Below are positions 3,681 through 23,111 of a stretch of 24,000 nucleotides of DNA, piece after piece. The DNA lies in NCBI RefSeq assembly GCF_004791165.1, contig NZ_SRUZ01000009.1:64873-88872 (forward strand). The letters are read 5' to 3'. A program made the position numbers and the translations under genes. Source of the stretch: Mesorhizobium sp. M8A.F.Ca.ET.218.01.1.1 (GTDB lineage Bacteria > Pseudomonadota > Alphaproteobacteria > Rhizobiales > Rhizobiaceae). Position 1 is the first letter of the stretch. The number at the start of each line of letters is the position of its first letter. The notes under the pieces are model-generated. The model had not been told where the DNA came from, searched no databases, and worked only from the letters and a program-made list of their open reading frames with translations.

Positions 3681-3734
3681 CGACGACAGATAATTCTGGA
3701 CTCTTGCCCCTCACGACGACAGATAATTCCGGAC
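3681..3734. repeat. Direct repeat CGACGACAGATAATTCYGGAC x2
   Basis: 21-mers at 3681-3701 and 3714-3734 differ at one base and are 33 bp apart (about 3 helical turns). They explain the duplicated IICRR peptide in the spurious ORF 3668-4126. Confidence 0.7.
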
Positions 3735-3849
3735 GTCATACCAGTCTGCCATTTATGCGACTTTTGAGGCCCAAATGGTGAACACCAATGCCGTCCTTGT
3801 TGGCGCGGCGCCTCATCGATCGGACTTGTGCTCCCGCGGTGGGCCCTGA

Positions 3850-6264: not shown

Positions 6265-6878
6265 TCCGAAGCTCCCTGTGTTAACTCTGGCCCAAGATCG
6301 ATGTCTTCTTCTGGTTCAATTTCTGCCTCGATGGCGGCGTTGAGAAGCTCGTGCAGATGTTGCTGGACGCCATCTGCGCCTTGGTCCGCGAAGGCAACCA
6401 GGCCGACGATATTTTGGTCGAGATCGGCGGATCTGCTGACGATCGAGTCTAGCGACTCCGCCGTGTCGCTGGTCGGTTCAGGCAACTTGAGCGGCAGCAG
6501 GACAGCCAGCCAGTTCTCCAGCAGAGCAGTTGTCGCTCCCTGTTCGGTCACACCGACGGGAAGCACACGGCAAACCTTGGTCATCGCATCAAGCGTGGCG
6601 GCGGAGGGTTTGGGCCCGACAAGGATCGTGGTCAGGGGACGTTTGGAGCGGGTGACGTCGAGCGCGCGCGCCACCCCTTCCACCTTGCGGAGGATCTTCT
6701 GTTCGGTGTCGAACGCCGTGTCAGCGACAAGGATGAGGTCGGGCGACGGGCTTTCGCCGACGAGGGCGGCTGGAAGATCGAACGATAGGCCGGCGATCGA
6801 CAGCGGGACTGACAGAGGGCGGTAACCCGCTTCCGAAAGCAGCGCGACGACCCCCTCGACTGGCGTGGCGCTGGTCAT
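6261..6878 (-). CDS. 205-aa protein of unknown function; sits where the middle component (LmuC-like) lies in an effector/middle/ABC-ATPase operon
   Basis: ATGA overlaps at both ends (6875-6878 and 6261-6264) indicate translational coupling. It has an acidic C-terminal tail (EAEIEPEEDIDLGPE). I recognise no family motif, so the call rests on position and size only. Confidence 0.55.
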   Translation of the reverse strand: MTSATPVEGVVALLSEAGYRPLSVPLSIAGLSFDLPAALVGESPSPDLILVADTAFDTEQKILRKVEGVARALDVTRSKRPLTTILVGPKPSAATLDAMTKVCRVLPVGVTEQGATTALLENWLAVLLPLKLPEPTSDTAESLDSIVSRSADLDQNIVGLVAFADQGADGVQQHLHELLNAAIEAEIEPEEDIDLGPELTQGASE

Positions 6879-8698: not shown

Positions 8699-9763
8699 CT
8701 ATTTCGGTGTGTCGGCGGCCGGAACATCTTTGTTGATCGTCGTCTGCAGCTTTTCGATGCGCGCAAGGATCTCATCGAACGAATAAGATTTCTCGTCGAA
8801 CATCATCGCCTGCATGGCTTGGTAGTCGGTGCGCAGGTCCTTTAGGCGATACTCGGCCGGCATCAGACGCAGGGTGCCCGAACGCGCGGTGTCATAGCTC
8901 GCCCAGCTCGATCGAAAGTACACGGCCTTGTGCCTGGCGACCTGCGCCAACATCTCGAAGTCGACAGCCGCCGCCTGCCCCTCGGCCGTGTCGAGAAGCA
9001 TCGCCACATCATAATAGTGGCGTGAAAAATACTGAGGGGTGGGAGAGTCTTCGGGACGGTGCGCTTCGGAGTGAAGCGCAGTGGCCTTCTCCCAGAAAGT
9101 CCTGCGCGCCGCCAGCACCGTGATGGTGCAATCCGGATTCTCGAAGAAGGTGGGGAAATCGTCAGCTGAATAGGGTCGGATGGTCTTCTGCTCGGTCGGC
9201 CAAGGATCGCCGCGTGCACCGAACTCCAGTTTGACGCGCGGAGTTATGTAGGTGACGCCTTGATAGTCCTGACCGGTCAGCGCGGCCGGGTAGTGAAAGT
9301 TCAGGGTCTGGGGGTCGTTGGCGTCGACCTCCAGCGACCAGTTGCCCTTGACCGGCTCGCCAAGTTGGACAGCGATCGCCTCTCGCAGGGCAGGAAGCAT
9401 GTTGTTGGCGATATGTTTTTCGACATCGGCCATGAGCGCATCGATGAGCTTGGCGGACTGCTTCTTGCTGATCCCTTCCCGCTCTGGATCCCGATCACCA
9501 TCATAGCCGAGGTCGGCACGATCGAATGAGAGGTCGATGTCCTCCGAAAAGCGTCGGATTGCACCATAGGCCTTGGAGAGAGAGGTGCCACCTTTGAAAA
9601 CCAGAGTGGGCGCATCGCCCTTCTGGAGTTCAAAGAGACGCTTCAAGGTCCAGCAAACCCAGAAGTCCTTCTCGATGATAATGCTGGCGACGCCGCGCAA
9701 GGCGCCGGACTCGCCGAAGACAGCCGCCCTATCGGACGCGTCCTGGCGAGCGAAGCTATCCAT
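8699..9763 (-). CDS. abiEii: AbiEii/AbiGii-family nucleotidyltransferase toxin (type IV TA / abortive infection)
   Basis: IIEKDFWVCWTLKRLF, then LVFKGGTSLSKAYGAIRRFSEDIDLS (the GS...DxD NTase motif typical of AbiEii). I place the start at ATG 9763 (MDSFARQ...). That start overlaps the abiEi stop by 8 nt (ATGGATAG). Confidence 0.9.
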   Translation of the reverse strand: MDSFARQDASDRAAVFGESGALRGVASIIIEKDFWVCWTLKRLFELQKGDAPTLVFKGGTSLSKAYGAIRRFSEDIDLSFDRADLGYDGDRDPEREGISKKQSAKLIDALMADVEKHIANNMLPALREAIAVQLGEPVKGNWSLEVDANDPQTLNFHYPAALTGQDYQGVTYITPRVKLEFGARGDPWPTEQKTIRPYSADDFPTFFENPDCTITVLAARRTFWEKATALHSEAHRPEDSPTPQYFSRHYYDVAMLLDTAEGQAAAVDFEMLAQVARHKAVYFRSSWASYDTARSGTLRLMPAEYRLKDLRTDYQAMQAMMFDEKSYSFDEILARIEKLQTTINKDVPAADTPK

Positions 9764-10385
9764 TGGCCGCGTCCGATCTGGTGTCCGCAATGGCGCGCAG
9801 CGTCGGGCGCATCCAGGCCGGGGCCTGAACGGCCGTCGACGCGAGCCTCTTCTTGTCGCTCGGCGACAGCTGGCGCGACGCGACGTGAACGATATCGGCC
9901 GCCCGTGACGGCCCCAGATGGCGTAGCGCCTGAACAACAGTCCCCGCCGCACTGCCCGGTGCGATGAGATGCTTGGGCGAAGCGTGGCGGAGATCGACGA
10001 TGCGTTTTCCGAGCACCACCCGACGGGATGGTCCATCCGTCAGGTATGAACTGCGGGCCGGAACCTGGGTCGATAGGCCGAGGACGTTCGCCGCGCGCGG
10101 GCCGGCGACCTGCACCTGAGAGCCTGTCTCTCTGGCCAGTGCCTGGGCGATGTCATCGGCCGCTGGAGAAAGGGGACCAAGCTTTGGATGCATTTTGGGG
10201 AAATCGTAAAGGCCGCGCGCGAGGCGACGGAGCCTGCCGCTCTTGACGAGGCGAGACAGGGCCTGATCGATCGCCGCCCGCGCAGCCAGGTCAAGGAAAT
10301 CGTTGGGCGTGAAAACGCTGCCGCGTCCGCTACTGCGGGCGCGCCTTACAATCCGATCTGGAGCTGACGTAACGGTCGTGTTCAT
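9756..10385 (-). CDS. abiEi: AbiEi-family antitoxin / transcriptional autoregulator
   Basis: 209 aa. Its N-terminal winged-helix-like segment (GSVFTPNDFLDL...ALSRLVKSGRLRRLARGLYDFP) is typical of AbiEi. It lies directly upstream of abiEii and overlaps it. Confidence 0.85.
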   Translation of the reverse strand: MNTTVTSAPDRIVRRARSSGRGSVFTPNDFLDLAARAAIDQALSRLVKSGRLRRLARGLYDFPKMHPKLGPLSPAADDIAQALARETGSQVQVAGPRAANVLGLSTQVPARSSYLTDGPSRRVVLGKRIVDLRHASPKHLIAPGSAAGTVVQALRHLGPSRAADIVHVASRQLSPSDKKRLASTAVQAPAWMRPTLRAIADTRSDAANG

Positions 10386-10416: not shown

Positions 10417-10779
10417 TGCAAGGCCTACGTGATACGCGAAGTTGGGCGTTTCAAGCGAGTTTGCCGGCCGCGGTCCGCGAAAGGACCGGCGTCTGGGTTT
10501 TGTCGATCGATGACCGTTATGACGTGACCTTAGCCCCTCTCCAAGGGTTCCTTGTACGCCCTCCCATCGATTGCCATAAGTTTGGCCACTCTTCATCCCC
10601 AGACCGCTCGATGATGGTTCATTACTCGGTCGGTTGCATGTTGACCAAGCTCCGACGTTTGAATTTCACCTGGTCCCCTTTGGGCCACCGTCCGTAACTC
10701 TCTTATTCAAAACCCGTGCAGCCAATTGACACCTGCTTGGACAAACAGCACAACCGACGGCTGGGCTTGGAAACTTCTT

Positions 10780-12552
10780 ATGTGGTCCGATTCGGATACC
10801 GACATCGACTTTTTGAACTATTCGGAAGTTGCGGAGGTTGTTGTAGACCTTCTCGCCGACCCGAAATTGTTGCCACTTTCTGTCGGCGTGTTCGGCGGCT
10901 GGGGAATCGGAAAGTCAACTACACTTCGCCTTGTTGAGCGCGAATTGGATAAGGCACCGGAACGCTATCTCGTCATCAAGTTCGATGCTTGGATGTATCA
11001 GGACTTTGATGACGCGCGCGCCGCACTGATGAGTGTGATCTCCGGTGCGCTTGTAAAGGCGGCCCCGCCTGCCCTCAAGGACAGAGCGAAATCCTTGATC
11101 GGGCGCGTGAACAAACTACGGTTTTTGGGCGTGGCGCTGGAGGCCGGCGCCTGGGCAATGGGTGTGCCCACCTTCGGGGCGATTTCCAAAGGTGTGACAG
11201 CCGCTGGCGCGCTTTTTTCGGGTTCGCAAGAGGACACGAACCTCGAAGCCGTCAAGGATGCCGCCTCTGACGTCCAGTCACGCGGTGCATCGCTCTTGCG
11301 CGAGGCGGAAGAGAAGGGTCCGCCCGATGAGATCGACGCATTTCGTGCCGAATTCAAAGCTGTTCTCCAGGACCTCGGGAAAACGATGGTCGTCTTCATC
11401 GACAACCTCGACCGCTGTTTGCCCCGAAACGCCATAGAGACCATGGAGGCCGTGCGGCTTTTCCTGTTCATGCCCAACAGTGCATTCGTCGTAGCCGCCG
11501 ACGAGGACATGATCCGACATGCCGTCAGTCAACACTTCAACAGCCCCTCGCAGCGCCACATCACCGACTATTTGGATAAGCTGATCCAGGTCCCGGTAAG
11601 GGTGCCAAGGGCGGGCATACAGGAGGTCCGCGCATACCTTATTCTGCTGCTTGCGAGCCGGTCCGATCTGAATGACGGAGCCGTTGAAAAACTGCGGCTC
11701 TATCTCATCGACCGCCTCCGGACCTCATGGAAGGATGATGGCGACTTCACGATCAACGAGATGCTGACCCAGTCCGGCGTGCAGGCGTCGAAAGAGCTGG
11801 CGACTGCATGGGAGATGGCCGACAGGATGGCGCCGATCCTGGCCCTGTCGCCCGGCGTCGTCGGCAACCCCCGCACCGTGAAGCGCATGCTCAACGTGGT
11901 GAGGATGCGGGCGAACGTTGCTCGTCGCCGTGCAATGCCTATCGACGAGGCGATGATCACCAAATTGGCGTTGTTCGAGCGTTGCACCGACATCGATGCG
12001 ACGGAAGAGCTTCATAATCTCATCAACGCCAGCCCGCGCGGAAAGCCCGCCATCCTGGCCAACCTTGAACATGCCAAGCCCGGCGTAACAGTCGCTGACT
12101 TGCCTGAGAAGTGGTCGAAACATGCTCCATTTCTGATGGAATGGGCGAAGCTGCCGCCTGGGCTGGCTGGTGTTGATCTGCGGCCTGCAGTGTACCTCGC
12201 CCGGGAGACTGTCCCGCTTCGCATGAGATCCGGTTCTCTCGCCGGCGGCGCTGCAAAAGCCGTCGAAACACTCCTTCAGATCCGGTCCGTGTCTTCGCCA
12301 GCCGCCAAGGCGGCGTTGGACAGCCTGCAGCCGGGGGACATGATCCCCGTCATGGAAGCGGTCATCGAGGTGATGAGAAAAGACTCTGATTGGTCGCGAG
12401 CACGGATGGATTTTCGTGGAGCCACATTGGTTGCCGACAGATCCGCAGCCGCGGCCGAATTGCTGAACCGCTTTTTCAGATCGCTGCAGCTTCCGAAGAC
12501 CCCGGGATGGGTCTCAACGATGCTCAAAGACAAGCCGTGGTGGGAGGAGTGA
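10780..12552 (+). CDS. qatA: QatA: KAP-family P-loop NTPase
   Basis: MWSDSDTDIDFLNY...SVGVFGGWGIGKSTTL (Walker A, nt 10894-10920), VIKFDAWMYQD, and Walker B VVFIDNLDRC, the KAP hallmark. The tracked ORF starts at TTG 10726. ATG 10780 fits the family N-terminus better. Confidence 0.85.
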   Translation: MWSDSDTDIDFLNYSEVAEVVVDLLADPKLLPLSVGVFGGWGIGKSTTLRLVERELDKAPERYLVIKFDAWMYQDFDDARAALMSVISGALVKAAPPALKDRAKSLIGRVNKLRFLGVALEAGAWAMGVPTFGAISKGVTAAGALFSGSQEDTNLEAVKDAASDVQSRGASLLREAEEKGPPDEIDAFRAEFKAVLQDLGKTMVVFIDNLDRCLPRNAIETMEAVRLFLFMPNSAFVVAADEDMIRHAVSQHFNSPSQRHITDYLDKLIQVPVRVPRAGIQEVRAYLILLLASRSDLNDGAVEKLRLYLIDRLRTSWKDDGDFTINEMLTQSGVQASKELATAWEMADRMAPILALSPGVVGNPRTVKRMLNVVRMRANVARRRAMPIDEAMITKLALFERCTDIDATEELHNLINASPRGKPAILANLEHAKPGVTVADLPEKWSKHAPFLMEWAKLPPGLAGVDLRPAVYLARETVPLRMRSGSLAGGAAKAVETLLQIRSVSSPAAKAALDSLQPGDMIPVMEAVIEVMRKDSDWSRARMDFRGATLVADRSAAAAELLNRFFRSLQLPKTPGWVSTMLKDKPWWEE

Positions 12553-12561
12553 CGAAAGGGT

Positions 12562-13323
12562 ATGGGGACATCGTCGTCGTCTAAGGGGCGCAAGAACAAC
12601 AGCCCGATGGTTCCACCGCATGCCGATGCCAATCCAGGCCAACCGGTACCTGCGCCCGAGGGACAGCGGTTCAGGGGCTTTCGTACGGAGTTTGGCCGGG
12701 CAGTGGCTGGCGCCGGCGGTGGATCTCTGTCTGCCGCGCTAGGCAAATATGCGCGTGACGCAACAGGGGGTGCCACAGTCGGACCCCGAAGGTTTGGCAC
12801 TGCATACCAAGCCGGCGGCGCGCTTGTCGGGCTGCTCAACGATCTTCAACAAGGCGGCTCTGGCGCCGAGTTCGCGGGAATAGACCTATCGACGCTGAAT
12901 GGACGCCCCCTGGCCGAGGCGGTTCAGGCGATTGCGCAAGCACTCGCCCCTGAGAATGCGGATGCCGACCTGATCCGCATAGCGGTACAAGAGGCGCTGG
13001 CCGAAGTGTTGCCCGATACCGCGTCATTCGAACCCGCCGATCTTGATGGCGACGTGTTGATCGCAGTCCTGATCGAGTTTTTCACGAGGATCATCTTTCA
13101 GGACATTGTCAGCGACGCCGGGGACGCCTGGAACAAGGCTCCTGACCAGGATCGCACGATCGAGGCGGAGAACGAACTTTTTGACATTATCCATGCCGCG
13201 GTCGACAGGCACCTTTCGCCTGCTCTGGCCAACGGGATGCAGAACATGACGCGGGCGCAAGTGGAGGCACAGGAACGTCGCGCAATGGACGCGATCTGGG
13301 CCGAATGGGAGGGAAATGAGTGA
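12562..13323 (+). CDS. qatB: QatB: unknown-function partner protein of the Qat system
   Basis: 253 aa. RBS AAGGG at 12556-12560. Gly/Ser/Pro-rich, low-complexity N-terminal region of about 90 aa, then a helical acidic domain. Identified by its position between the KAP NTPase and QueC-like genes. The stop overlaps the qatC GTG (GTGA at 13320-13323). Confidence 0.7.
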   Translation: MGTSSSSKGRKNNSPMVPPHADANPGQPVPAPEGQRFRGFRTEFGRAVAGAGGGSLSAALGKYARDATGGATVGPRRFGTAYQAGGALVGLLNDLQQGGSGAEFAGIDLSTLNGRPLAEAVQAIAQALAPENADADLIRIAVQEALAEVLPDTASFEPADLDGDVLIAVLIEFFTRIIFQDIVSDAGDAWNKAPDQDRTIEAENELFDIIHAAVDRHLSPALANGMQNMTRAQVEAQERRAMDAIWAEWEGNE

Positions 13324-14630
13324 CGCTGTGCCGCTTCTTTCTGGACAAGGAGACTTTTCCCGCCGACTGCCCTCCCAACGAATTGCACGTTCTCCTTTAC
13401 GGAGGATCAGCCCCAATTCCGGGAGCCATCGCCATCGGGAACCAGGTCCGAGACCTCTTTTTGCGTTTCGGTGTGCAGCCGTCCGCGACAGCCGTTGATT
13501 TTGTGTCCATCGCGCTCGCGGTCACCGCGGCCGACACATTCGTTTTAAGAGATGACGCTGCGGACAGCTGGAGCAGGGATATCGAGATCCACCTGCCGCT
13601 GCGAGCACCCGACACATGGAATATGGTAAAGTCCCAACTGCAGCGCCTGCTCGGCTTTCTGAGCGGTGACCAATGGCGTTTTCACTTTGAAGGCGGCGGC
13701 GAGGCTCCTCCCCTTCCCTCGGTCATCCGGCAGCATGACAGACGGATAGACCTCCTTGCCGGCGATCTCGTTTCGCTTTTCTCAGGAGGTCTGGACAGCA
13801 CCGTCTCTACGTTCCGGCTCATCGAGGAGAGCGCCCGCCCGGTCCTGGTTTCTCATGCCTACACCGGCGACAAATCCGTCCAGAACGCCATTGTCGCCCG
13901 CTTACCGACAGCCCTTCAGCACGTCTCGGTAAATGCCTGGCCAAACTCGGAGCGCACGTCCGAGATATCGATGCGTTCCAGAAGCTTCCTCTTCATAGCC
14001 ATCGCCGCTTTGGTTTGTGACGTGAAATCAAGGCTGGTCGGCGGGCGCCCGATCGCACTGCAAGTTCCCGAGAACGGCCTGATTGCGTTGAACGCGCCAT
14101 TAACGCCGAGACGGATCGGGTCCCATAGCACGCGCACAACGCATCCCTTTTTCTTGGATGGTGTCCAAGCGATTTTCGGCGCCGTTGGCATCCCGGCCAC
14201 GATCGACAATCCGTTTGCAACCTGGACAAAAGGGCAAATGGTGCGATCGGTGAGCGGGAGCGAACTCTTTCAGGCCATTGCCTCAGAAACAGTCTCTTGC
14301 GGAAAGTGGAAGCGAGAAGGCCAACAATGCGGACGCTGCGTGCCCTGTCTCATCAGACGGGCGTCTCTCTACGAAGGTGACGTGGATGACCAGACCTCTT
14401 ACCAGTCTGCCAGCCTCGTTGAGGTGATGAAAGTCGAAGACACCCGAGACGACCTGGTCGCGATGCTCTCGGCCGTCAAGCGCTTGGACAGTGCCAATGC
14501 CGACACGTGGGTTGCTCAATCAGGGCCTATGCCTGCCGATGTCGATCGCCGATCGGCCCTTGTCGATGTCCATCGACGCGGTCTAATGGAGGTCGGCAGA
14601 TACCTCGCGGACAGTGGCTTCAAGATGTGA
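13320..14630 (+). CDS. qatC: QatC: QueC-like PP-loop ATPase with a roughly 150-aa N-terminal extension
   Basis: PP-loop SGGLDS (nt 13782-13799). C-terminal Cys cluster CGKWKREGQQCGRCVPC, as in the QueC zinc site. GTG start. Confidence 0.9.
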   Translation: MTLCRFFLDKETFPADCPPNELHVLLYGGSAPIPGAIAIGNQVRDLFLRFGVQPSATAVDFVSIALAVTAADTFVLRDDAADSWSRDIEIHLPLRAPDTWNMVKSQLQRLLGFLSGDQWRFHFEGGGEAPPLPSVIRQHDRRIDLLAGDLVSLFSGGLDSTVSTFRLIEESARPVLVSHAYTGDKSVQNAIVARLPTALQHVSVNAWPNSERTSEISMRSRSFLFIAIAALVCDVKSRLVGGRPIALQVPENGLIALNAPLTPRRIGSHSTRTTHPFFLDGVQAIFGAVGIPATIDNPFATWTKGQMVRSVSGSELFQAIASETVSCGKWKREGQQCGRCVPCLIRRASLYEGDVDDQTSYQSASLVEVMKVEDTRDDLVAMLSAVKRLDSANADTWVAQSGPMPADVDRRSALVDVHRRGLMEVGRYLADSGFKM

Positions 14631-15361
14631 TCGATTTTCATTGCCATCTCGACCTCTATCGGTATCCCGAGCTTGCGGTCGAAGATGCGGACAAATCAGG
14701 GGCTTATGTCCTCTGCGTGACCACGACGCCAAGGGCGTGGAAGTCAACGTCGGCATTGTGTGCGAACCGGCCACGGATCCGCACAGCCTTGGGGCTGCAC
14801 CCCGAACTCGCCCATGAGCGCGAAGGTGAGTTACCCCTTTTCAAGCATTTTGCCTCTGAGACCAGATATTTTGGCGAAATCGGCCTGGATGGCTCCGAGC
14901 ATTTGCGAAGCGCGAAGGCGGCTCAAGAGCGCGTCTTCACTGCCATATTGGCCACAGCAGCAGACCTCGGCGGCAAGATCCTGTCCATTCACAGCCGCCG
15001 CGCCGCTGACGAGGTCCTTGATTGTCTATCCAAACACTCCGCTGCCGGCACTCCCATCTTGCATTGGTTCAGCGGATCTCAAAGACAGCTCAGACGGGCT
15101 GTCGACCAGGGCTGCTGGTTCAGCTGCGGGCCCTCCATGTTGAAGTCAGAGAACGGAAAGGCGATTGCAAGGTCCTTGCCGCGCAACCGCGTGCTCACCG
15201 AAACCGACGGTCCATTCGCTCTCGAAGGCAGTCGGCCGCTTCAGCCAAAGGATTCCTGGCAAGCATTGAAGATGCTCTCCGACATCTGGCAAATCCCCGA
15301 AGCGGAAGCGGCTGCAATTCTCAAACACAATCTTGTGGCGCTGACAACGGGCAAGCCGTAG
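14627..15361 (+). CDS. qatD: QatD: TatD-family metal-dependent hydrolase/DNase
   Basis: (V/M)IDFHCHLD at the N-terminus (the TatD HxH motif), then GEIGLD and SIHSR. GTG 14627 overlaps the qatC stop (GTGA). The tracked ATG at 14507 would overlap qatC by 124 nt and add a Cys/Arg-rich non-TatD leader. Confidence 0.85.
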
Positions 15362-15570
15362 GGCCTGCATCAAGTCGGAAAGGCCAGCACGGGCCATCGT
15401 CGCGACGTCGTTGGGCAACGCAATCTGATGCTGGAAAGGCTCGATCAATGACCGACGGCGTTGAGATGCTCCGGCTGCGCTTGGTGAGCCATGACAGACA
15501 TCGCTGTGTGGCGCATAGCTGTGGACGTGAACGGAAAATCCTTGTGTAATAGAAAGAGGGGGACAGCACC

Positions 15571-17535
15571 ATGGACAAGGAAAGACCAAACCAGGCCGTC
15601 CTGTTCGATGACCGTTTCCTGGACAAATATGCAGGGCCGATCATTTCCGATCCTGCAGTGGCCATCGTTGAACTTGTCGCGAATGCTTGGGACGCCTACG
15701 CGACCAAGGTGGATATAGTCTGGCCCAAGCGCAGCCAAGACATCCGATTTTCCATCACTGACAACGGCAAAGGGATGACCCCGGCGCAGTTCGAGAGGCG
15801 TTGGAATACGCTTGACTACAATCGCCTTGCCGACGAGGGCACCAAGTCGGGGCCGCCCGAGGATCTGTCAGACTCCCCTCCCCGAAACCCGTATGGCCGC
15901 AACGGTAAAGGCCGCCATGCGGCCTTCAAGTTCTCCGACCCTTACACGGTGCGCACCTGGCGGGACAGCGTCGAAACCGTCTACGAAGTTCGTCGCGGTG
16001 TCACCCAACCCTTCGACGTCATGGTGATCAACTCCCGCGACAAGGTCATTGGGCATGGTACGGAGATAATGGCGACCGCCTCCGATGGCACTTCCATGGG
16101 CGCGGACACAGCCCGCGAGATCATCGGCACGCGCTTTCTCGCGGACCCGAATTTCGTGGTCTCGCTCGACGGAACTTTGGTCACATTCGATGACATCCCG
16201 ACGCGCAACATCCAGAAGGTCAACGTCGACGTGCCCGGCTTTGGGGTGGTCCAGATCGTAATGATCGATAGCCAGAAAGCCGATCGGACCACGAGGCAGC
16301 ACGGCATTGCATGGCGCGTGAATTCGCGGCTTGTCGGAAACCCGGGCTGGGTCGGGTTCGACCATGAGCGTATCCTCGACGGGCGGAGCACCGAAGCGAA
16401 ACGCTTCCAGTTCATCGTCTCGGCAGACATCCTCGAGAATGCGGTGCAGCCGGACTGGAGCGGGTTCCTTCCCAATGACCCGGCATGGCAGGCCACCCGG
16501 CCCGCCGTGCATGCGCAGATCAAGCAGTACCTCTCCACCTTCTCTGCTGATCGCCGCCGTGAGGCGAAACACTCCGTCAAGGAACAGCTGGTCAAGACGG
16601 TGCGGCAGCTACCTCCCGTTGGGCGCGAACGCTGGAATCAGTTCGTGGATGAGGTGATCGATAATTGCCCCTCGATCTCGACGGAAGAGATCGGCAAGGT
16701 CGCGGGCATCCTCGCCAATCTTGAACTGAGCACGTCGAAATTCAGCCTAGTAGGGAAGCTGAACGAGCTGCAGCCGGGCGATCTCGATGCGCTGTACGAA
16801 CTCCTCGACGACTGGACTCTCAGGCTCGCGAAGGACGCCCTCGATGAAATCCAGACGCGCCTGAAGCTGATCAAGGACTTGGATAAGAAGCTTCGCGACG
16901 ACACCATGGACGAGGTCGGCGACCTGCAGCCGCTGTTCGAGCGATCGCTGTGGGTGTTCGGCCCTGAGTTTGAGAGCCTCGAGTTCACAAGCAACAAAGG
17001 CATGACGGAGGTCATTCGCAAGATATTTGGGTCGAATGAAACGGGTAGCAGGCAGCGACCCGATTTCGTGATGCTGCCCGATGGCAGCGTTGGGCTTTAT
17101 AGCCGCGACGCGCATGATCTCGGACATGAAGTGGATGGTGTGTCCCGCCTGGTCGTGGCCGAGATCAAGAAGCCCGGCGTGGGCATAGGCTCCGAGCAGA
17201 AAGATCAGGCGTGGCGGTATGTGAAGGAGCTGAGGAGCAAGGGGCTTCTGACCGAAGCGGCCGTGACGACCTGTTACATCCTCGGCTCGAAGATCGATGC
17301 CGCCGAGGGCGGGAGTCGAACCGAGTGGGACGGACGCGTTACCATCATCCCGATGACCTACAATACTTTCATCCGTAGAGCGGAAAAGCGAATGCTCGGC
17401 CTTCGCGAAAGGCTAAAGGAGGCCCCGTTCCTGAAGGAACACGGTGTTGATGGCGATGCCTTCATCACGCCGCCACCGGATCCACAGCGGGACCTGCTAG
17501 CCGCTGCCGGCGCAGGTGCTTCGGCACACCCTTAG
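15571..17535 (+). CDS. MORC-like GHKL ATPase fused to a C-terminal Shedu/DUF4263-like PD-(D/E)xK nuclease core
   Basis: 654 aa. RBS AGAGGGGGA at 15555-15563. Bergerat-fold motifs: N-box ELVANAWDA (nt 15670-15696), G1 DNGKGM (aa 64-69), G2 [11 protein letters not shown] (aa 109-119). C-terminus: [22 protein letters not shown] (D498, nt 17062-17064), VVAEIKKP (E531/K533, nt 17161-17169), QAWRY (Q546), [13 protein letters not shown]. Confidence 0.8.
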
Positions 17536-17542
17536 GATCAGC

Positions 17543-18977
17543 ATGGCAACGTTCGGCCCACGATTTGGAGAGGACGACCTAGGCACCTTGTCCATCGAGG
17601 AACGAGGACGAGGCCTCGTGGAGGTGTTTTTCCAGCCTTCAGCGACGCGACTAAAGATCGCGCACCGCGAGGGGGACCCAACGACCCGCGTCCTGCTTAT
17701 AAAGTTCGAGGCTAGGACGGACACGACCACGCTCTATCCCGTCAATACCATGCCCACGTCCGCGAGCTTCCTGACGCCTAAGCACGATCCCATTGTTTCG
17801 ATCGAGCTGGTACTGAAGAATGGGTTCGCCCACATGGTCGATGATTATGACGGAGCCGAACATTTCGTCGTGCCGAGCACCCTCGATGACGTGCAGATGT
17901 ACCTAGAGGAGTGCATGCCCTCGGGGTTCACTAAAAACCCGAATTTCGGGCTTGGGCTCGATCGCACGCTTTCATTCATCACCCAGGCGCTGTCACAGAT
18001 CGACGGTATCAAGCAATTGCGCCTGACCGACGAGAAGACCCTCGAGGTCTCTCGGTCGGCCGACGGCAAGACCTTTGAGATGGGCTATCGCCTTTTCGAC
18101 GAGTTGCGCCGCGGGGCCAATCGTTTTGATGACAAGGCGCGCGCCTCGAGCAGGAAGAAGAAGCACCAGGCCGCCTACACCAATCTTCTCACCAGGCTCG
18201 ACCGTACAAAGTTTCCGCTGAAGCTGTTCGAGCGCGCACCTGATGATCTAGCGGAAGTGATCGGCGAGACTATTGTAGACGCCCGCCTTTCGGAAAAAGA
18301 CCGGGCGGCCGTTGTCAGCCTCGCCGGCGCAACGGTCCGCAAATCAATCAAAACCCAGCGCGCCGGGCTCGTAAAACTTCATGACGAGATTGAACTTGCT
18401 TCCCTCGATGAGCTGATAGTCCATATGGAAACGCAGTTCGCCGCGAGGGCCACCGAGCCGCAATGGCAGAAGCTGTTCGAGGCCAACCCTTTTATCCTGG
18501 ACATGGCATTCAACGTGCCGGTGCTTTTGCTGCAGGGGCAGGCCCATGTCGGCGGGAAGATCCTCGACGGGTCAGGCGAGAAGATCGCCGATTTCCTGTT
18601 CACCAACCAGCTGACCGACAGTATTGCTATTTTGGAGATCAAAACGCCCGGCATGGACCTGGTCAGCAAGAAGCAATACCGGGGCGGAGTCTTGGCGCCC
18701 TCCCCCGAGCTCGTCGGCGCGGTCGTGCAGACCCCGCGACCAGATCGACAAACTGCGTAGCGATATCTACCGAATTAAAGCGCTTAATCCCCAGCATAAG
18801 CTGGAGTCCTACGGCATCAAAGGTGTGGTGCTGGCGGGCACAATCCCGGATACCGAGCGGAAGCGTTCCTTCGAACTGTATCGCAACAGCTTGTCCGGGC
18901 TGTCTATCATCACCTTCGATGAGCTGCTAGCGAAGCTGAAATCCTTGCGCGAGCTCCTGTCGGCGAAGCCGGCATAG
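17543..18977 (+). pseudogene. sduA: Shedu-type (DUF4263) nuclease with an unknown N-terminal domain of about 300 aa; reading frame broken by a 1-nt frameshift near 18732-18737
   Basis: ATG 17543 is preceded by AGGA (17535-17538). Frame A reads EPQWQKLFEANPFILDMAF, IADFLF (D, nt 18590-18592), ILEIKTP (E/K, nt 18635-18643) and GAVVQ (Q, nt 18728-18730), then stops at 18758-18760. Frame B continues DQIDKLRSDIYRIK...GVVLAGT...SFELYRNSLSGLSIITFDELL to 18977. The span of 1435 nt equals 3n+1. Confidence 0.75.
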
Positions 18978-19035: not shown

Positions 19036-19752
19036 CTATTCGTCCGTCTCGACTCCGATGTCCTCTGGGACGCCAGCAAAGTCCGGCATGATGCTGCCCG
19101 CAAGCAACTTCTCCTTCGACAGCAGGCCGGCATCCTCGAGCGCCTCGAAATCCGGCAGGTCGCGCAGCGTATCGAGCCCGAACTCCAGCAGGAATTCTTT
19201 CGTCGTCACATAGGTGTAGGGCGCGCCGGGTGTCGGACTGCGCGGACCGGACGCAATCAGCTTCGCGCCGCGCAGATGACCAATAAAATCGCGGCTGATC
19301 TCCTTGCCGAAGAAGGAAGAAAGCTCGGCGCGAGTGATCGGCTGGAAGTAGCCGATGCACATCAGCACGAGCACCTCGGACTGCGTGAGGTCTGCCGCGC
19401 GCTCGTTGCCGCCAACCGCGGCACGAATGGCGTCGGCATAGGCCGACCGCGTCAGATGCTTCCACCCGCCAGCGACGGCGACCAGGTCGTAGGGCCGGCC
19501 GCGCAATTCTTCCCGGATGTCGTCGATCAGGAGATCGATGCTGCAGCCTTTCCCCACGATGCGGGCGAGCGTTTCGCGCGTCACCGGTTCGCTGGCCGCA
19601 AAAATTGTTGCCTCGACGCGATGCATCCACTCGCGCCAGCGCGCCTCCGGCGGCAGGTGATCCAGCTCCCGGTCAAACAACTGGTCAGCTGATCGACGGT
19701 CATCTGACCGGCTCCCCCGTTGCCTCCGCGCCGTCTCCGCCATGATCGTCAC
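19036..19752 (-). CDS. scpB: ScpB-like protein (SMC-ScpAB kite subunit homologue, tandem winged helix)
   Basis: VEATIFAASEPVTRETLARIV..., LTQSEVLVLMCIGYFQPITRAELSSFFGKEIS..., PGAPYTYVTTKEFLLEFGLDTLRDLPD follow the ScpB consensus. GTG 19752 overlaps the upstream stop (GTGA). An alternative ATG is at 19743. Confidence 0.85.
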   Translation of the reverse strand: MTIMAETARRQRGSRSDDRRSADQLFDRELDHLPPEARWREWMHRVEATIFAASEPVTRETLARIVGKGCSIDLLIDDIREELRGRPYDLVAVAGGWKHLTRSAYADAIRAAVGGNERAADLTQSEVLVLMCIGYFQPITRAELSSFFGKEISRDFIGHLRGAKLIASGPRSPTPGAPYTYVTTKEFLLEFGLDTLRDLPDFEALEDAGLLSKEKLLAGSIMPDFAGVPEDIGVETDE

Positions 19753-20780
19753 AGCCCGTAGATGCGGAACGTTGGGCGCCCGGAAAGCTCGCGCACGGCG
19801 CCAAGTTCGACCAGCCGATCGAACAGGCGTCGAAGGCCGCGGTCGCTCATGCCGGCAACCTTTTCCGAGGCAATGATTGCATCGTCGGCCAGTAGCTTGT
19901 CGACAACAGCGTCCGCCGCCTTGGCCCGGAGTTTCGGCGCGACCGCAAGCAGCCGGTCCGCGCGGCGCTTGAGTTCAGCGGAAAGATCGATGGCGCGAAG
20001 CGCAGCGCGCGCCTGCACGGCCAGCAGACTTCTGGCACGCTCAAGATCTGTCTCAATGCCTGTCACCGGAGAGATGGCTGCCGATCGACGCGGGCGGGCG
20101 CTTATGCCCAAGGCTGCCTCGGCGCCCAGCAGCGGCACCGCGTGTACCCAACCCAGCCGTTGCGCCAGCAAGCCGTCGGCGAGCCATGCCCCGACGGCGC
20201 GCGCAAAGCCGTGGCGTTCGGCGGCCATGAATGTGCCGGTCAGCGTTGCGACCATATCAGTGCCGGCAGCGAGTTGCCGGAGATCATCCGCCAAATCGCT
20301 GACCACCTCATCATCCGGGGCATAGCCGAACTCTTCCAACACCGCGGCGAGGTTTTTCTCCGTCAGCAATTCCTCCGCGGGCCGGGCTGCCAGCCGGCGC
20401 CAGGCAAGCAGCAAAAGCCCGGCGGGACCGACGGACCAAAAATCGCCCGGTCGCGCGAGCAGCAAGGCATCGCGCAGTGCGCTTTCATCCTCGACGCGGC
20501 CGGCCTGTTTCGCCGTTGCCGCTGCCGCCGAAAGCGCAAGCCGCTGCCGCCAAGCGCCGGCCCACCGCTCCTGCTGGCGAACGACTGCATCGAGCGCGCC
20601 GATGGCGGCACCAGCAGCGAGCGCGACGTCATCAACACCTTTTCCCGCAAGGCTTTGCGCATCCGGTACGGCGCGGCGCAGCCAGGCCGGCACCGCTGCC
20701 ATCGGCGCGGTCGAAGCGGCACCGGCAAGCGTGGCGTAATGACGCGAAAAGGGTTTGGCGCGCAGAATCATTGCAAGCAC
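19749..20780 (-). CDS. DUF1403-family protein (alphaproteobacterial; Ala/Leu-rich helical body plus C-terminal winged-helix-like tail)
   Basis: 343 aa. I recognise the overall pattern as DUF1403 (memory-based call). C-terminus is MSDRGLRRLFDRLVELGAVRELSGRPTFRIYGL. Tracked start is GTG 20780; an alternative ATG is at 20771. Confidence 0.65.
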   Translation of the reverse strand: MLAMILRAKPFSRHYATLAGAASTAPMAAVPAWLRRAVPDAQSLAGKGVDDVALAAGAAIGALDAVVRQQERWAGAWRQRLALSAAAATAKQAGRVEDESALRDALLLARPGDFWSVGPAGLLLLAWRRLAARPAEELLTEKNLAAVLEEFGYAPDDEVVSDLADDLRQLAAGTDMVATLTGTFMAAERHGFARAVGAWLADGLLAQRLGWVHAVPLLGAEAALGISARPRRSAAISPVTGIETDLERARSLLAVQARAALRAIDLSAELKRRADRLLAVAPKLRAKAADAVVDKLLADDAIIASEKVAGMSDRGLRRLFDRLVELGAVRELSGRPTFRIYGL

Positions 20781-20848
20781 GATGAATCATGACGGCGCTT
20801 TTCGCAACGGAAATAGGCAAAAAGCGCTGTACCTGTAGGCAACACACA

Positions 20849-20877
20849 ACGAATGATAATCTTGCATTATCGTTCGT
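20849..20877. promoter_or_regulatory. Imperfect palindrome in the divergent DUF1403/recombinase intergenic region; candidate recombinase core site or operator
   Basis: ACGAATGATAAT (20849-20860), CTTGC spacer, ATTATCGTTCGT (20866-20877). 11 of 12 arm positions are complementary. Confidence 0.4.
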
Positions 20878-20896
20878 GTTGGTCTTTATAGAGGAA

Positions 20897-22120
20897 ATGG
20901 CCCCTATCGTCGATCAAAACCCCGAAAATCGTACTCGGCATCGCTCCGCTCGACCACAGGAAACGGCGCGGGGTGTCGATCAAATCGCGCAGGTGGCCTC
21001 GGCCGGGCACGACACGCCGATCGCCGACGACCTGCCCGACATCGTCGACGTTGTCATGGAGATGGGTCGTATCCCGGAGGAACCGCCGGCCGAAGCCCCC
21101 TCCCCTCTCCCGGCCGTCGCCAATCCCCGCCTGCCGGCGCATCTCGACGCGCTGGCCGATCGCGCCCGCGACTATGTCGAGGCGGCGAGTTCCGCCAATA
21201 CGCGTCGGGCCTATGCGGCTGATTGGAAGCATTTTGCGAGTTGGTGCCGGCGCCAGGGCGTCGAAACGTTCCCGCCGGATCCCCAGGTGGTCGGGCTCTA
21301 CATCACCGCGTGCGCCTCTGGCACGGCGACCGGCGACAAGAAGCCGAACTCGGTGTCCACGATCGAGCGCCGGCTTTCCTCACTGACGTGGAACTATGCG
21401 CAGCGCGGCCAGCCGCTCGACAGGAAGGACCGCCATATCGCGACCGTCATGGCCGGCATTCGCAACAAGCACGCCTCCCCACCCCGGCAGAAGGAGGCGG
21501 TGTTGCCGGAAGATCTGATCGCCATGCTGGAGACGCTCGACCGCGGCACGCTACGCGGCCTGCGCGACCGCGCCATGCTGCTCTTGGGTTTCGCCGGCGG
21601 CCTGCGGCGCTCCGAGATCGTGGCTTTGGATGTCGGCCGCGACCAGACCGAGGACGGCCGAGGCTGGATCGAGATCCTTGACAAGGGCATGCTCGTTTCT
21701 CTTCGCGGCAAGACCGGCTGGCGGGAGGTCGAAGTCGGGCGCGGCTCGTCCGATGCCACCTGCCCAGTTGTCGCGGTGCAGACTTGGCTCAAGCTCGCCC
21801 GTATCGCGCATGGTCCCCTCTTCAGGCGCGTCACCGGCCAGGGCAAGGCGGTCGGCGCCGATCGACTCAACGACCAGGAGGTGGCGCGCCTGGTCAAGCG
21901 CACTGCGCTGGCGGCCGGCGTGCGCGGCGATCTGTCGGAAGGCGAACGAGCAAAGCTCTTTGCCGGACATTCGCTACGCGCTGGCCTCGCCTCTTCGGCC
22001 GAAGTCGATGAGCGCTATGTGCAAAAGCAGCTCGGCCATGCCTCGGCTGAAATGACTCGCCGCTATCAGCGCAGACGCGATCGCTTCCGTATCAATCTCA
22101 CCAAGGCGAGCGGACTATAG
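20897..22120 (+). CDS. Tyrosine recombinase / site-specific integrase (Cre-like N-terminal SAM-like domain)
   Basis: SANTRRAYAADWKHFASWCRRQG (N-terminal core-binding domain). Catalytic set: LLLGFAGGLRRSEI (R), GHSLRAG (HxxR), LGHASAEMTRRY (H...Y). The start is uncertain. The tracked ATG 20789 would put the palindrome inside the CDS, so ATG 20897 (GAGGA just upstream) is chosen. Confidence 0.88.
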   Translation: MAPIVDQNPENRTRHRSARPQETARGVDQIAQVASAGHDTPIADDLPDIVDVVMEMGRIPEEPPAEAPSPLPAVANPRLPAHLDALADRARDYVEAASSANTRRAYAADWKHFASWCRRQGVETFPPDPQVVGLYITACASGTATGDKKPNSVSTIERRLSSLTWNYAQRGQPLDRKDRHIATVMAGIRNKHASPPRQKEAVLPEDLIAMLETLDRGTLRGLRDRAMLLLGFAGGLRRSEIVALDVGRDQTEDGRGWIEILDKGMLVSLRGKTGWREVEVGRGSSDATCPVVAVQTWLKLARIAHGPLFRRVTGQGKAVGADRLNDQEVARLVKRTALAAGVRGDLSEGERAKLFAGHSLRAGLASSAEVDERYVQKQLGHASAEMTRRYQRRRDRFRINLTKASGL

Positions 22121-22164
22121 GCCGGGCACGCCTCTCCCCTGCCCTTCGGATGCCGAGAAGTACG

Positions 22165-22683
22165 TTATCGCCAGGATAGCTGGTCCTTCGGCAACCGGCC
22201 GCTTGGGTCGAATACGGTTATATTGTGCGGCAGACCCGGACCCCAGTCCCAAAGGACCAGGTTACGATCCTCCATTTCGGCGCTCGGCGCGAAACTTGGG
22301 ACCACAATGCCGGCAATACTCCGAGGCCGCAGCCGGTCGCAGACGGACCAGGACGCCGGGCGCTCTCCGTCGCTAAGCGCCGTCGCCCAGGCGCAGGCCA
22401 TGTCCTCGAGCGCGATAGAAAATTCTCCCCTCGCCTCGTCCGTTGTCAGATCCACGATGTCGTCGCAGTCGATCTCATAGGAACACAGCACGCAAGGATC
22501 GATCCGGTGCGCGAACCCCTGGTTGGCTTCCTTGACCGCTGTCATGATGGTCAGCGCCAAATAGAGCGCCGGCACGCCTTTGGGATTAAATCGCGCACCT
22601 CTGATCGCCGCCCCTTCGCCGGAAGTCGGCTTGAATGCCCAACGTGGATCGTGTGCGCGGTAGCAGGTTCCAACGAACCTCAC
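22165..22683 (-). CDS. RES-domain toxin (Xre-RES / ParT-MbcT-like NAD+-targeting family)
   Basis: 172 aa. CYRAHDPRW...GEGAAIRGARFNPKGVPALYLA...AVKE is the RES-domain N-terminal pattern. The GTG start overlaps the antitoxin stop (GTGA at 22680-22683). Confidence 0.9.
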   Translation of the reverse strand: MRFVGTCYRAHDPRWAFKPTSGEGAAIRGARFNPKGVPALYLALTIMTAVKEANQGFAHRIDPCVLCSYEIDCDDIVDLTTDEARGEFSIALEDMACAWATALSDGERPASWSVCDRLRPRSIAGIVVPSFAPSAEMEDRNLVLWDWGPGLPHNITVFDPSGRLPKDQLSWR

Positions 22684-23111
22684 GCAAACCCGCCAACGGC
22701 CATGTGATCGAGATAGTCACGGACCGCTGCTGCCTTGCCGTCCTTCACCAGCGCCTCAGCGGTGCGTCCGCCAAATGCTGGAAGCGGCTGAGCTCGATAC
22801 CAAGCCATCGCCTGCTCCTTGCCGCCCGCCCAATCCGTCACGCGACTTATGATCTCGAGCATTTCCCGCAGACGCCCCTGTGTCTTAACCGTAGCGCTGC
22901 GCTCTGAGCGATAAAGGGTCTCGCGAGCAAGACCGGCGGTCTGGGCCAACTGGCCCTTGGACATGCCAAAACCATCCGCGACCTGCTCGATCGCAATCTT
23001 CCCGTTCCGGTCCATATAGGACAAAACGAGAGGTCCATTCTGCTCGGGGATCTTGAGTGCATGGGCCACAGAATTCATCCTACCATATGGAGAGTCATAT
23101 TTCTTGTGCAA
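22680..23111 (-). CDS. Xre-family antitoxin with DUF2384 (MbcA/ParS-type) C-terminal domain
   Basis: HTH segment IEQVADGFGMSKGQLAQTAGLARETLYR. C-terminus is AMAWYRAQPLPAFGGRTAEALVKDGKAAAVRDYLDHMAVGGFA, typical of RES-partner antitoxins. Tracked start is TTG 23111; an alternative ATG is at 23078. Confidence 0.85.
   Translation of the reverse strand: MHKKYDSPYGRMNSVAHALKIPEQNGPLVLSYMDRNGKIAIEQVADGFGMSKGQLAQTAGLARETLYRSERSATVKTQGRLREMLEIISRVTDWAGGKEQAMAWYRAQPLPAFGGRTAEALVKDGKAAAVRDYLDHMAVGGFA

Follow-up and report, generated by a model that had tools for sequence, protein, structure and literature searches.

An intact GHKL ATPase-Shedu nuclease fusion gene and a frameshifted classical Shedu gene, head to tail in a Mesorhizobium defence island

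Two neighbouring genes on the forward strand of a 24,000-nucleotide stretch of Mesorhizobium DNA (the window) appear to encode nucleases of the Shedu family, and the question they raise is whether they form a two-gene immune system or two systems that stand side by side. A sequence-only reading of the locus had proposed the former, as an undescribed module that pairs a fusion of GHKL ATPase and Shedu-type nuclease with a second Shedu-type gene. Given that the two genes adjoin in only a few genomes, we do not regard them as a new obligate two-gene system. Instead, we consider it highly probable that they are two separate single-protein Shedu-family nucleases arranged head to tail within a defence island on a plasmid, neither of which needs the other. 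The island itself is as that reading described it, with QatABCD located directly upstream of gene 1 and in the same orientation. The product of gene 1 is identical to WP_135867130.1 of Mesorhizobium, and the features of both genes are collected in Table 1.

Table 1. Features of the two-gene locus, in positions of the window
Feature	Positions	Strand	Basis or remark
Conserved leader/promoter region of the cassette (GCGGAAA..TGTGTAATA..GGGGG..ATG)	15510-15570	+	blastn, upstream-region alignment
Gene 1, GHKL-ATPase/Shedu-nuclease fusion, 654 aa, intact	15571-17535	+	paraMORC3 / Type 1D Shedu-like
GHKL (Bergerat fold) ATP-binding domain, gene 1 aa 29-146	15655-16008	+	Pfam HATPase_c_3 E 9e-17; motifs I-III
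Beta-rich middle domain, S5/transducer-like, gene 1 aa ~147-300	16009-16470	+	AF2 pLDDT 70-90; Foldseek
Long alpha-helical linker, gene 1 aa ~304-448	16480-16914	+	DSSP helices H304-339 to H405-441 in AF2 model
PD-(D/E)xK nuclease domain of Shedu (DUF4263) type, gene 1 aa ~449-616	16915-17418	+	hhalign, conservation, secondary structure
Gene junction: AGGA ribosome-binding site, 7-nt spacer, gene 2 ATG	17534-17542	+	same in all cassette copies
Gene 2 as a whole, canonical SduA, split by a 1-nt insertion	17543-18977	+
Gene 2 first frame, 405 aa: N-terminal domain of ~270 aa and first half of the nuclease (IADF, LEIKTP, AVVQ)	17543-18760	+	PADLOC SduA PDLC00384 E 1e-102; Pfam SduA_C 41.5 bits
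Frameshift site: inserted C at ~18737 and one T replaced by C, compared with intact homologues	18735-18737	+	alignment with L001, L006, L007
Gene 2 second frame, C-terminal part of the SduA nuclease (..IDKLRSDIY..GVVLAG..IITFDELLAKL)	18738-18977	+	PADLOC SduA E 6e-24; Pfam SduA_C positions 107-159

The N-terminal part of gene 1 carries the complete GHKL ATPase that had been recognised by eye, with motifs I to III where they had been placed and motif IV in addition. Motif I is ELVANAWDA, with E34 and N38; motif II is DNGKGM at residues 64-69 (D64xGxG68); motif III spans residues 109-119 (G109xxGxG114); and motif IV, GHGTEI, occupies residues 161-166 (positions 16051-16068), just downstream of the stretch matched by the Pfam model. 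Across 80 representatives of the family, at 28-47% identity to gene 1, there is no variation at E34, N38, D64, G66, G68, G112 or G114; G109 is present in 79, and H162, G163 and T164 are conserved.

The AF2 model of gene 1 places a putative S5/transducer-like domain, corresponding to the N24 domain of Gu et al., after the GHKL domain. A Foldseek search with the full-length model aligned approximately 370-400 columns with the ATPase-plus-middle modules of MORC2/3/4, Hsp90/GRP94/TRAP1 and MutL (E ~2e-10), at TM-scores that are low (0.2-0.45) because the orientation of the domains in the model is uncertain. The likeness to MORC2/3/4 is seen at the level of the fold only, and paraMORCs are described as lacking the MORC-specific motif (Iyer et al., PMC2292703). 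The helical linker that had been read between the two halves is also present in the model, and it aligns collinearly with the corresponding region in a family of 587-aa GHKL-DUF4263 proteins.

General searches recover this first half of gene 1 and little else. Scans with Pfam, NCBIfam and PADLOC models matched the GHKL part alone, family profiles searched against the sequences in the PDB recovered no proteins other than those of the GHKL type (MutL, PMS2 and Hsp90), and the Foldseek matches of the full-length model were dominated by the GHKL module. Matches to the NCBIfam BbrUII/HgiDII and PADLOC REase_II models were rejected as evidence for a restriction enzyme, as they cover only residues 19-209.

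The C-terminal domain of gene 1 shows, in order, the motifs E...D...ExK of restriction-endonuclease-fold domains: a helix motif at residues 452-467 is followed by RPDF (D498), AEIKKP (E531 and K533) and QAWRY (residues 546-550), and the secondary structure in the AF2 model is alpha-beta-beta-beta-alpha-beta. D498, K533 and Y550 are invariant in all 80 representatives, while Q546 is found in 79 and E531 in 78. The helix glutamate, E457, is present in gene 1 and is kept in only 47 of the 80. A conserved insertion of approximately 18 residues, specific to this clade, lies between D498 and E531.

A check of gene 1 against Pfam bore out the predicted ATPase and not the predicted nuclease, since HATPase_c_3 matched, whereas SduA_C (DUF4263, PF14082) gave no match at E-values up to 0.1; the best E-value obtained with the PADLOC SduA models was only 0.036. 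When the C-terminal family of gene 1 was compared with the SduA family by hhalign, the alignment covered 147 columns with a probability of 91% (P = 1e-6), and it pairs the same motifs that had been matched by eye. A second comparison with Shedu nucleases gave a probability of 82% (P = 1e-5) over ~145 columns. The first comparison scored 51.4; for the controls, 25 with shuffled columns and one reversed, scores stayed between 10 and 20 (P = 0.06-0.87). Judged by these profiles, the nuclease core common to gene 1 and SduA, as claimed for both genes of the pair, is more than a chance resemblance.

Relatives of gene 1 point in the same direction. Residues 24-611 are collinear with the 587-aa proteins, many of which carry both PF13589 and PF14082, and hhalign aligned the gene 1 family with this GHKL + DUF4263 family over 543 collinear columns (E = 8e-48). 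Two distant relatives of gene 1 (L072 and L073) match SduA_C directly, with E-values of 6e-5 and 2e-4, and bridging relatives reach 22-24 bits on PF14082, for which the gathering cut-off is 27 bits. The AF2 model of the C-terminus is poor between D498 and E531 (pLDDT <50), and Foldseek with a model of this part only found no significant match in the PDB, although weak matches to restriction-endonuclease folds were seen with this poor model. Thus, the assignment of the gene 1 nuclease rests on sequence profiles rather than on the fold. On these grounds we accept the proposed reading of gene 1, in which a PD-(D/E)xK nuclease of Shedu type is joined to a GHKL ATPase.

Gene 2 is the more familiar of the two. 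By its sequence it can be assigned to the classical SduA proteins, with D, ExK and Q motifs, in agreement with the DUF4263 signature reported earlier. In addition to the profile matches listed in Table 1, the Bacillus cereus SduA structure 8ti8 matches gene 2 with an E-value of 1.5e-27 (C-terminal domain, residues 274-472), and the repaired protein aligns with 8ti8 through its last residues. Relative to the Pfam SduA_C gathering threshold of 27 bits, the 405-aa half scores above and the 117-aa half, with 25.1 bits, just below.

Intact homologues of gene 2 are 468-478 aa long. Here the first frame closes at a premature stop produced by the frameshift already suspected in the sequence-only reading, which consists of one extra base: the sequence ACCCTG-GACC of intact homologues reads ACCCCGCGACC in this genome. 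The open reading frame is thus interrupted within the nuclease domain, and gene 2 is a pseudogene here. The same lesion, identical in sequence, is present in L085 and L086. Because it recurs in a second assembly (L086) and combines an insertion with a substitution, we rejected sequencing error as its source, with the caveat that the two assemblies may be clonal.

As had been noted, gene 2 begins immediately downstream of gene 1 with its own ribosome-binding site. The AGGA sequence (17534-17537) overlaps the TAG that ends gene 1, and 7 nt separate this TAG from the start codon of gene 2, the ATG at 17543. A blastn comparison of the window with four other loci (L001, L006, L007 and L081) revealed that homology begins at positions 15509-15531, ~60 nt upstream of gene 1, and that in three of the four copies compared it extends no further than the gene 2 stop codon; in L007 it continues for another ~220 nt. 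The two genes therefore delimit a cassette of 3.45 kb, which is found in at least four genomic contexts with an identical junction, exact boundaries and 80-87% nucleotide identity, and which is flanked by wholly different sequences (Qat genes, a DEAD-helicase block or DUF6119). Persistence in at least four contexts exceeds what would be expected for random adjacency in a shuffling island, and this counts against the reading of two independent genes. Between positions 15200 and 19200, a scan for consensus sigma-70 promoters yielded no promoter-like site, and terminator-like sites occurred at background level.

The cassette is confined to genomes in which gene 1 is at least 90% identical, in the genera Mesorhizobium, Rhizobium, Manganibacter and Martelella, and the idea that the gene pair is conserved across genomes did not hold beyond them. 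Of 69 species-level loci that contain a gene 1 homologue, just 2 have a Shedu-type neighbour at a distance of up to ~4 kb, and the other 67 have none. Gene 1 homologues without gene 2 occur at 88%, 84% and 64% identity, and six gene 2 homologues (73-49% identity) reside without gene 1 in other defence islands. Among plasmids in PLSDB, three carry the pair, three most of gene 1 by itself, two only gene 2, and one a remnant of gene 2; a fourth plasmid with only gene 1 matches just 11% of the query. A 666-aa HATPase_c_3 protein near the gene 2 homologue of L083 was considered as a displaced gene 1 and rejected, as tblastn identified it as a different GHKL protein. It is encoded beside a gene for a TIR-domain protein.

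These distributions, together with the frameshift of gene 2 in a genome where gene 1 is intact, lend no support to the notion of an obligate pair of Shedu paralogues. Little of the pair idea is left: within one shallow clade, both genes move jointly as a self-contained cassette of 3.45 kb. The best-supported alternative to two autonomous nucleases is a true two-gene module, in which both genes are selected together and the GHKL-Shedu protein acts in concert with classical SduA, whether by forming a hetero-oligomer or by one product sensing and the other amplifying cleavage. The spacer of 7-10 nt, the overlap of the ribosome-binding site with the gene 1 stop codon and the lack of space for a separate promoter speak for such a module, and given these features the two genes are probably co-transcribed. 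Shared cassette boundaries in entirely different surroundings are also consistent with it, as are the intact copies of both genes in Rhizobium, Manganibacter and Martelella and the precedent of two-component Shedu systems such as KELShedu (PMC12577705). Nevertheless, we judge this module to be unlikely. The pairing is limited to a single shallow clade, both families are solitary elsewhere, and it is gene 2 that has been frameshifted in this lineage while gene 1 remains intact. Moreover, VcSduA and classical SduA each work alone, and a mixed tetramer is unlikely because the nuclease domains of gene 1 and gene 2 are only ~18-20% identical.

In its narrowest form, the proposal would be that in one Rhizobiales lineage the two genes are a co-transcribed and co-mobilised tandem cassette whose products cooperate, and to this we assign a low likelihood. 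If it were true, two Shedu nucleases with unlike sensors might widen one another's range or serve as its backup, or the products might interact physically, and the cassette would then show two autonomous systems that have only begun to evolve into a two-component one.

It is very improbable that the cassette is instead a decaying remnant in which neither gene functions in this strain. Gene 2 is indeed a pseudogene, and homologues of gene 1 are split into two open reading frames in L055 and L061, but gene 1 itself is full length with every catalytic residue in place, is identical across several Mesorhizobium assemblies and belongs to a family under strong purifying conservation. Finally, a housekeeping role for gene 1 in DNA repair or topology, of the MutL/MORC type, is hardly credible: although the solved structures closest in sequence to its N-terminus are MutL, PMS2 and Hsp90, its family is distributed sporadically with variable flanks, is often found on plasmids or in defence islands, carries a Shedu-type nuclease and has a relative, VcSduA, with proven phage defence activity (PMC12137116).

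With two autonomous nucleases as the preferred reading, a mechanism for each can be proposed from its relatives. By analogy with VcSduA and other GHKL enzymes, the gene 1 protein would form an entwined dimer with an N-terminal clamp that shuts around DNA when ATP is bound and reopens when it is hydrolysed. These movements would gate the C-terminal nuclease, which would then cut invading phage or plasmid DNA directly rather than act by abortive infection. An intact gene 2 protein, judging from the B. cereus and Escherichia coli SduA structures, would assemble as a tetramer, with sensing by its N-terminal domain and nicking or cleavage of DNA by its nuclease; in this genome, the gene is inactivated by the 1-nt insertion. 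The two genes would have become adjacent only recently, and then have spread among Rhizobiales replicons as the 3.45-kb cassette.

The current picture of Shedu biology is unchanged by these results, and their value is of a more practical kind. The gene 1 clade comprises at least 618 clusters at 50% identity (E-values up to 1e-3), mainly from alphaproteobacteria, and it is missed by the Pfam SduA_C and PADLOC 2.0 SduA models and labelled by NCBI only as 'ATP-binding protein'. Defence censuses that rely on these models would probably report too few Type 1D Shedu systems among rhizobia and their relatives. Furthermore, the insertion in the nuclease core of gene 1 may have a bearing on the gating of the active site by the ATPase, and the tandem cassette offers a cheap natural test of cooperation between two Shedu variants.

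Among known systems, KELShedu resembles this pair in being a Shedu-family system of two adjacent genes, the partner KELA being a dsDNA-binding protein (PMC12577705). However, KELA is neither a second DUF4263 nuclease nor a GHKL ATPase, whereas here a nuclease is encoded by both genes and the pairing is not conserved. Classical SduA proteins (B. cereus 8ti8/8ti9; E. coli SduA, Loeff et al. 2025) share with gene 2 the D, ExK and Q motifs and a length of ~477 aa; gene 2 differs in its frameshift and in its N-terminal 270 residues, which matched none of the Pfam families or solved structures.

For gene 1, the claim that a GHKL-Shedu fusion had not been described must be withdrawn, since the same architecture is known as paraMORC3, Type 1D Shedu and VcSduA. 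ParaMORC3 was defined by a GHKL domain, an S5 domain and a C-terminal restriction-endonuclease-fold domain with E-D-ExK motifs, often standalone in proteobacteria (Iyer, Abhiman and Aravind 2008, PMC2292703), and Type 1D Shedu by HATPase_c_3 plus the N24 middle domain, with 278 proteins (Gu et al. 2025; bioRxiv 10.1101/2023.08.10.552793). Gene 1 has this composition, and its family, like the nuclease-bearing subset of the paraMORC3 proteins prevalent in proteobacteria, mostly stands alone without conserved neighbours. The bridging gamma- and betaproteobacterial family is ~22% identical to gene 1 and shorter (587 versus 654 aa).

VcSduA, from the WASA lineage of Vibrio cholerae, is a single-gene defence system that combines a GHKL ATPase with DUF4263, and it requires residues of both the ATPase and the nuclease, as either of the substitutions E27A and K557A abolishes defence (Adams et al., Nat Microbiol 2025, PMC12137116). 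Like members of the gene 1 family, it is a single polypeptide encoded by a lone gene in defence islands. The order of parts is also the same, from N-terminal GHKL motifs I-IV through a clamp-like middle domain to a C-terminal PD-(D/E)xK Shedu nuclease, and, comparing VcSduA by its published description, E27 and K557 are nearly collinear with E34 and K533 of gene 1. Defence has been demonstrated experimentally for VcSduA, whereas gene 1 is known from its sequence; gene 1 is further set apart by the ~18-residue insertion between the catalytic D and ExK, and by belonging to a divergent alphaproteobacterial clade that escapes Pfam SduA_C. On the evidence of sequence comparison, gene 1 is best described as a divergent, poorly annotated alphaproteobacterial member of the GHKL-ATPase/DUF4263 fusions typified by paraMORC3, Type 1D Shedu and VcSduA.

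The amino-terminal region of the gene 1 product is a GHKL ATPase (Pfam HATPase_c_3, residues 29-146, E = 9e-17), and every motif listed in the sequence-only reading was found at the residue it named. An AF2 model built with 33 homologues as input (mean pLDDT 71) presents, from N to C terminus, the GHKL domain, a middle domain rich in beta strands, some 150 residues of helix and an alpha-beta-beta-beta-alpha-beta unit. When compared by Foldseek with MORC2/3/4, Hsp90/GRP94/TRAP1 and MutL, this model aligns over approximately 370-400 columns (E ~2e-10). Residues E34, N38, D64, G66, G68, G112 and G114 are invariant among 80 cluster representatives sharing only 28-47% identity with gene 1.

The carboxy-terminal region is less conspicuous. 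The proposed Pfam check recovered HATPase_c_3 in gene 1 and SduA_C in gene 2, but a search of the gene 1 C terminus with Pfam models gave zero matches, DUF4263 included, and the best PADLOC SduA match to gene 1 reached only E = 0.036. Despite this miss, the Shedu-type nuclease core that had been claimed for gene 1 is supported at the profile level. A 54-sequence profile of the C-terminal region aligns by hhalign with a 105-sequence SduA alignment over 147 columns (probability 91%, P = 1e-6), pairing a 13-residue stretch of gene 1 with WQKLFEANPFIL, AEIKKP with LEIKTP, Q546 with an SduA glutamine, and the C-terminal strand-helix elements with each other. An independent profile from the 80 representatives gave 82% (P = 1e-5), whereas the controls (25 column-shuffled, one reversed) reached scores of just 10-20 and P values of 0.06-0.87. 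Distant gammaproteobacterial relatives of gene 1 at loci L072 and L073 (589 and 588 residues) match SduA_C directly (E = 6e-5 and 2e-4), and many members of their family, from Pseudomonas aeruginosa, Burkholderia and Thauera, carry precomputed PF13589 and PF14082 annotations. The two families align over 543 collinear columns (hhalign probability 100%, E = 8e-48), spanning residues 24-611 and covering LWVFGPE, RPD, ExK and Q..Y. Finally, D498, K533 and Y550 are invariant in the 80 representatives, with E531 retained in 78 and Q546 in 79. Because of the SduA alignments, the bridging relatives and this conservation, we assign the domain, on sequence grounds, to the Shedu nuclease family.

Pfam probably misses the domain because of a clade-specific insertion of about 18 residues between D498 and E531-x-K533 (residues ~505-523; window ~17083-17139), which is missing from the 587-residue GHKL-DUF4263 family in the hhalign alignment. 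The insertion is kept within the gene 1 clade, where Y510, D513, D516, V521 and G523 are invariant in the clade alignment, and both AF2 models have low confidence there.

Gene 2 is a textbook SduA, as its proposed DUF4263/Shedu signature had indicated. PADLOC PDLC00384 matches it with E = 1e-102, Pfam SduA_C scores 41.5 bits on the first half and 25.1 bits on the second (cut-off 27), and residues 274-472 of the repaired protein match Bacillus cereus SduA (8ti8; E = 1.5e-27). Nothing matched the N-terminal ~270 residues. Its ATG lies 7 nt past the gene 1 TAG, and its AGGA overlaps that stop codon. Relative to intact homologues, the frameshift near 18735-18737 consists of one inserted base plus a substitution (ACCCTG-GACC to ACCCCGCGACC), and the broken gene lacks the last ~80 residues of the nuclease fold. 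Since a second assembly (L086) has this lesion too, gene 2 is a pseudogene in this lineage.

Features of the defence island and its borders
Feature	Coordinates	Strand	Remarks
FGGY kinase and two SDR genes	66-2632		left island border
Lamassu-like three-gene operon with SIR2 effector	3850-8593	-	resemblance
LmuB-like SMC ATPase	3850-6264	-	Lamassu-like operon; PADLOC LmuB E 3.5e-34
204-aa protein	6261-6878	-	Lamassu-like operon; no match
SIR2_2 protein	6875-8593	-	Lamassu-like operon
AbiEi/AbiEii toxin-antitoxin abortive-infection pair	8699-10385	-	PADLOC E 1e-67 and 2.5e-108
QatABCD, complete	10726-15361	+	QatA E 4e-214, QatB 6e-68, QatC 2e-113, QatD 1e-89
Gene 1	15571-17535	+	654 aa; identical to WP_135867130.1
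Gene 2 (SduA)	17543-18977	+	ATG at 17543; one frame to 18760, other frame to 18977
Right island border	19036-23111	both	comprises the three entries below
ScpB-like gene and DUF1403 gene	within 19036-23111	-	right border
Tyrosine recombinase	20789-22120	+	right border
RES / Xre-MbcA-ParS toxin-antitoxin pair	22165-23111	-	right border

The two genes do reside in a dense defence island directly after qatD on the same strand, as had been described, with 210 nt separating the QatABCD genes from gene 1. The AbiE pair sits between QatABCD and the Lamassu-like SIR2 system, and the replicon is of the repABC type, with the repABC genes just outside the window (seen in assembly L085). Mesorhizobium sp. 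contig SRUW01000009.1 (GCA_004791755.1) is the same as the window: a comparison of 18.4 kb showed not one mismatch.

The family of gene 1 is large, falling into more than 1,453 clusters at 90% identity and, with E up to 1e-3, into 618 at 50%. It is almost wholly alphaproteobacterial, with members of ~620-700 residues. An obligate pairing with a Shedu paralogue is not borne out. Among 69 homologue loci, sampled as one genome per species, tblastn with repaired gene 2 located a Shedu neighbour only in Rhizobium leguminosarum and Manganibacter; searching every six-frame ORF of 74 loci with an SduA nuclease-domain HMM gave those loci again and nothing further close by, and clustering of flanking genes revealed no other family-wide partner. 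Martelella (L081) and plasmids of Rhizobium sp. (L001-L003) have the pair as well, and in every pair-bearing locus gene 1 shares 90% identity or more with that of the window. Beyond this clade each gene stands by itself: homologues of gene 1 at 88% (L089), 84% (L088, L011) and 64% (L004) identity lack gene 2, and gene 2 homologues at 73, 70, 69, 64, 60 and 49% lack gene 1, neighbouring instead an OLD/UvrD gene pair, AbiE, SIR2 or HTH-peptidase genes. Of the plasmids in PLSDB, three have both genes, three have most of gene 1 without gene 2, two have gene 2 without gene 1 and one has a gene 2 remnant; a fourth gene 1 match covers only 11% of the query. That remnant, 585 bp of the gene 2 3' end (93.5% identical) in Pseudorhizobium flavum (NZ_LR723672.1, 198326-198907), and homologues of gene 1 broken into two ORFs at L055 and L061 (305+334 and 555+361 residues) are decay products of both families.

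Within the clade, the two genes move as one 3.45-kb unit, as established by conserved boundaries and junction amid differing flanks. Homology among copies (80-87% at the nucleotide level) begins ~60 nt upstream of gene 1 and ends at the gene 2 stop codon, except that in one of the four copies examined, that of Manganibacter, it extends ~220 nt more; the junction TAGGATCAGCATG is conserved, and the flanks are wholly different (Qat in the window, an HTH-DEAD helicase block in Rhizobium and Manganibacter, DUF6119 in Martelella). The genes are probably co-transcribed. That their products also cooperate strikes us as improbable, and the shared travel fits simple co-mobilisation of neighbouring defence genes.

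Several neighbourhoods merit separate mention. Upstream of the Rhizobium and Manganibacter cassettes lies an HTH_17 + DEAD/ResIII SF2 helicase (694-797 residues; weak PADLOC matches to type IV REase and PbeA), separated from the cassette by an extra 154-158-residue protein in L001-L003 and Manganibacter; the helicase is missing from the window and Martelella. A gene 1 homologue of 56% identity, represented in five genera (Devosia, Phenylobacterium, Paracoccus, a Rhodobacteraceae MAG and Xanthobacter), lies 40 nt 3' of an 832-residue LmuB-like SMC ATPase (PADLOC E = 3e-21), with a 405-residue ORF farther 5' in four of the five. This block has identical coordinates (1451-5911) in all five loci (L035, L038, L039, L043, L066) and looks like a conserved unit disseminated through recent horizontal transfer. 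At L072 and L073 (1191-5689), the GHKL-DUF4263 gene follows a 902-906-residue ORF by 9 nt, itself preceded by a ~400-residue ORF. The three may form an operon, in contrast to the alphaproteobacterial genes, which are solitary. At L083 (193-3362), a 666-residue HATPase_c_3 protein precedes a CAP12/PCTIR TIR protein, 3.8 kb 5' of a solitary gene 2 homologue; it has no tblastn match to gene 1 and was rejected as a homologue.

Gene 1 retains an intact ATP site, middle domain and nuclease active site, and its family occurs standalone, while gene 2 is broken. By analogy with VcSduA and with GHKL enzymes at large, the N-terminal domains would be driven by ATP to dimerise into a clamp around DNA, and the ATPase cycle would license direct cleavage of foreign DNA by the C-terminal Shedu nuclease. 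Judging from the B. cereus and Escherichia coli proteins, intact gene 2 would form a tetramer whose N-terminal domains sense a trigger and release nuclease activity.

The fusion had been regarded as undescribed, and here the earlier reading must yield, by the very outcome it had named as removing the novelty. Its observation is confirmed and its interpretation partly supported. The paraMORC3 proteins combine GHKL, S5 and a C-terminal RE-fold domain with E-D-ExK motifs, and their nuclease-bearing proteobacterial members are standalone genes (Iyer, Abhiman and Aravind 2008, PMC2292703); Type 1D Shedu includes GHKL fusions (HATPase_c_3 plus an N24 middle domain; Gu et al. 2025, bioRxiv 10.1101/2023.08.10.552793). 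For VcSduA, a GHKL-DUF4263 protein, one gene suffices to protect against T1-like phages and vibriophage X29, protection extends to every MOI tested, and either E27A (ATPase) or K557A (nuclease) abolishes it; the model is an entwined dimer enclosing a clamp-like cavity (Adams et al. 2025, PMC12137116). The helicase upstream of the Rhizobium and Manganibacter cassettes recalls the SF2-helicase link of MORC and paraMORC operons (Iyer et al.), and the L083 arrangement resembles the paraMORC4 GHKL-TIR theme. Gene 1 is therefore a divergent, under-annotated member of a known and experimentally validated kind, beside a pseudogenised classical Shedu.
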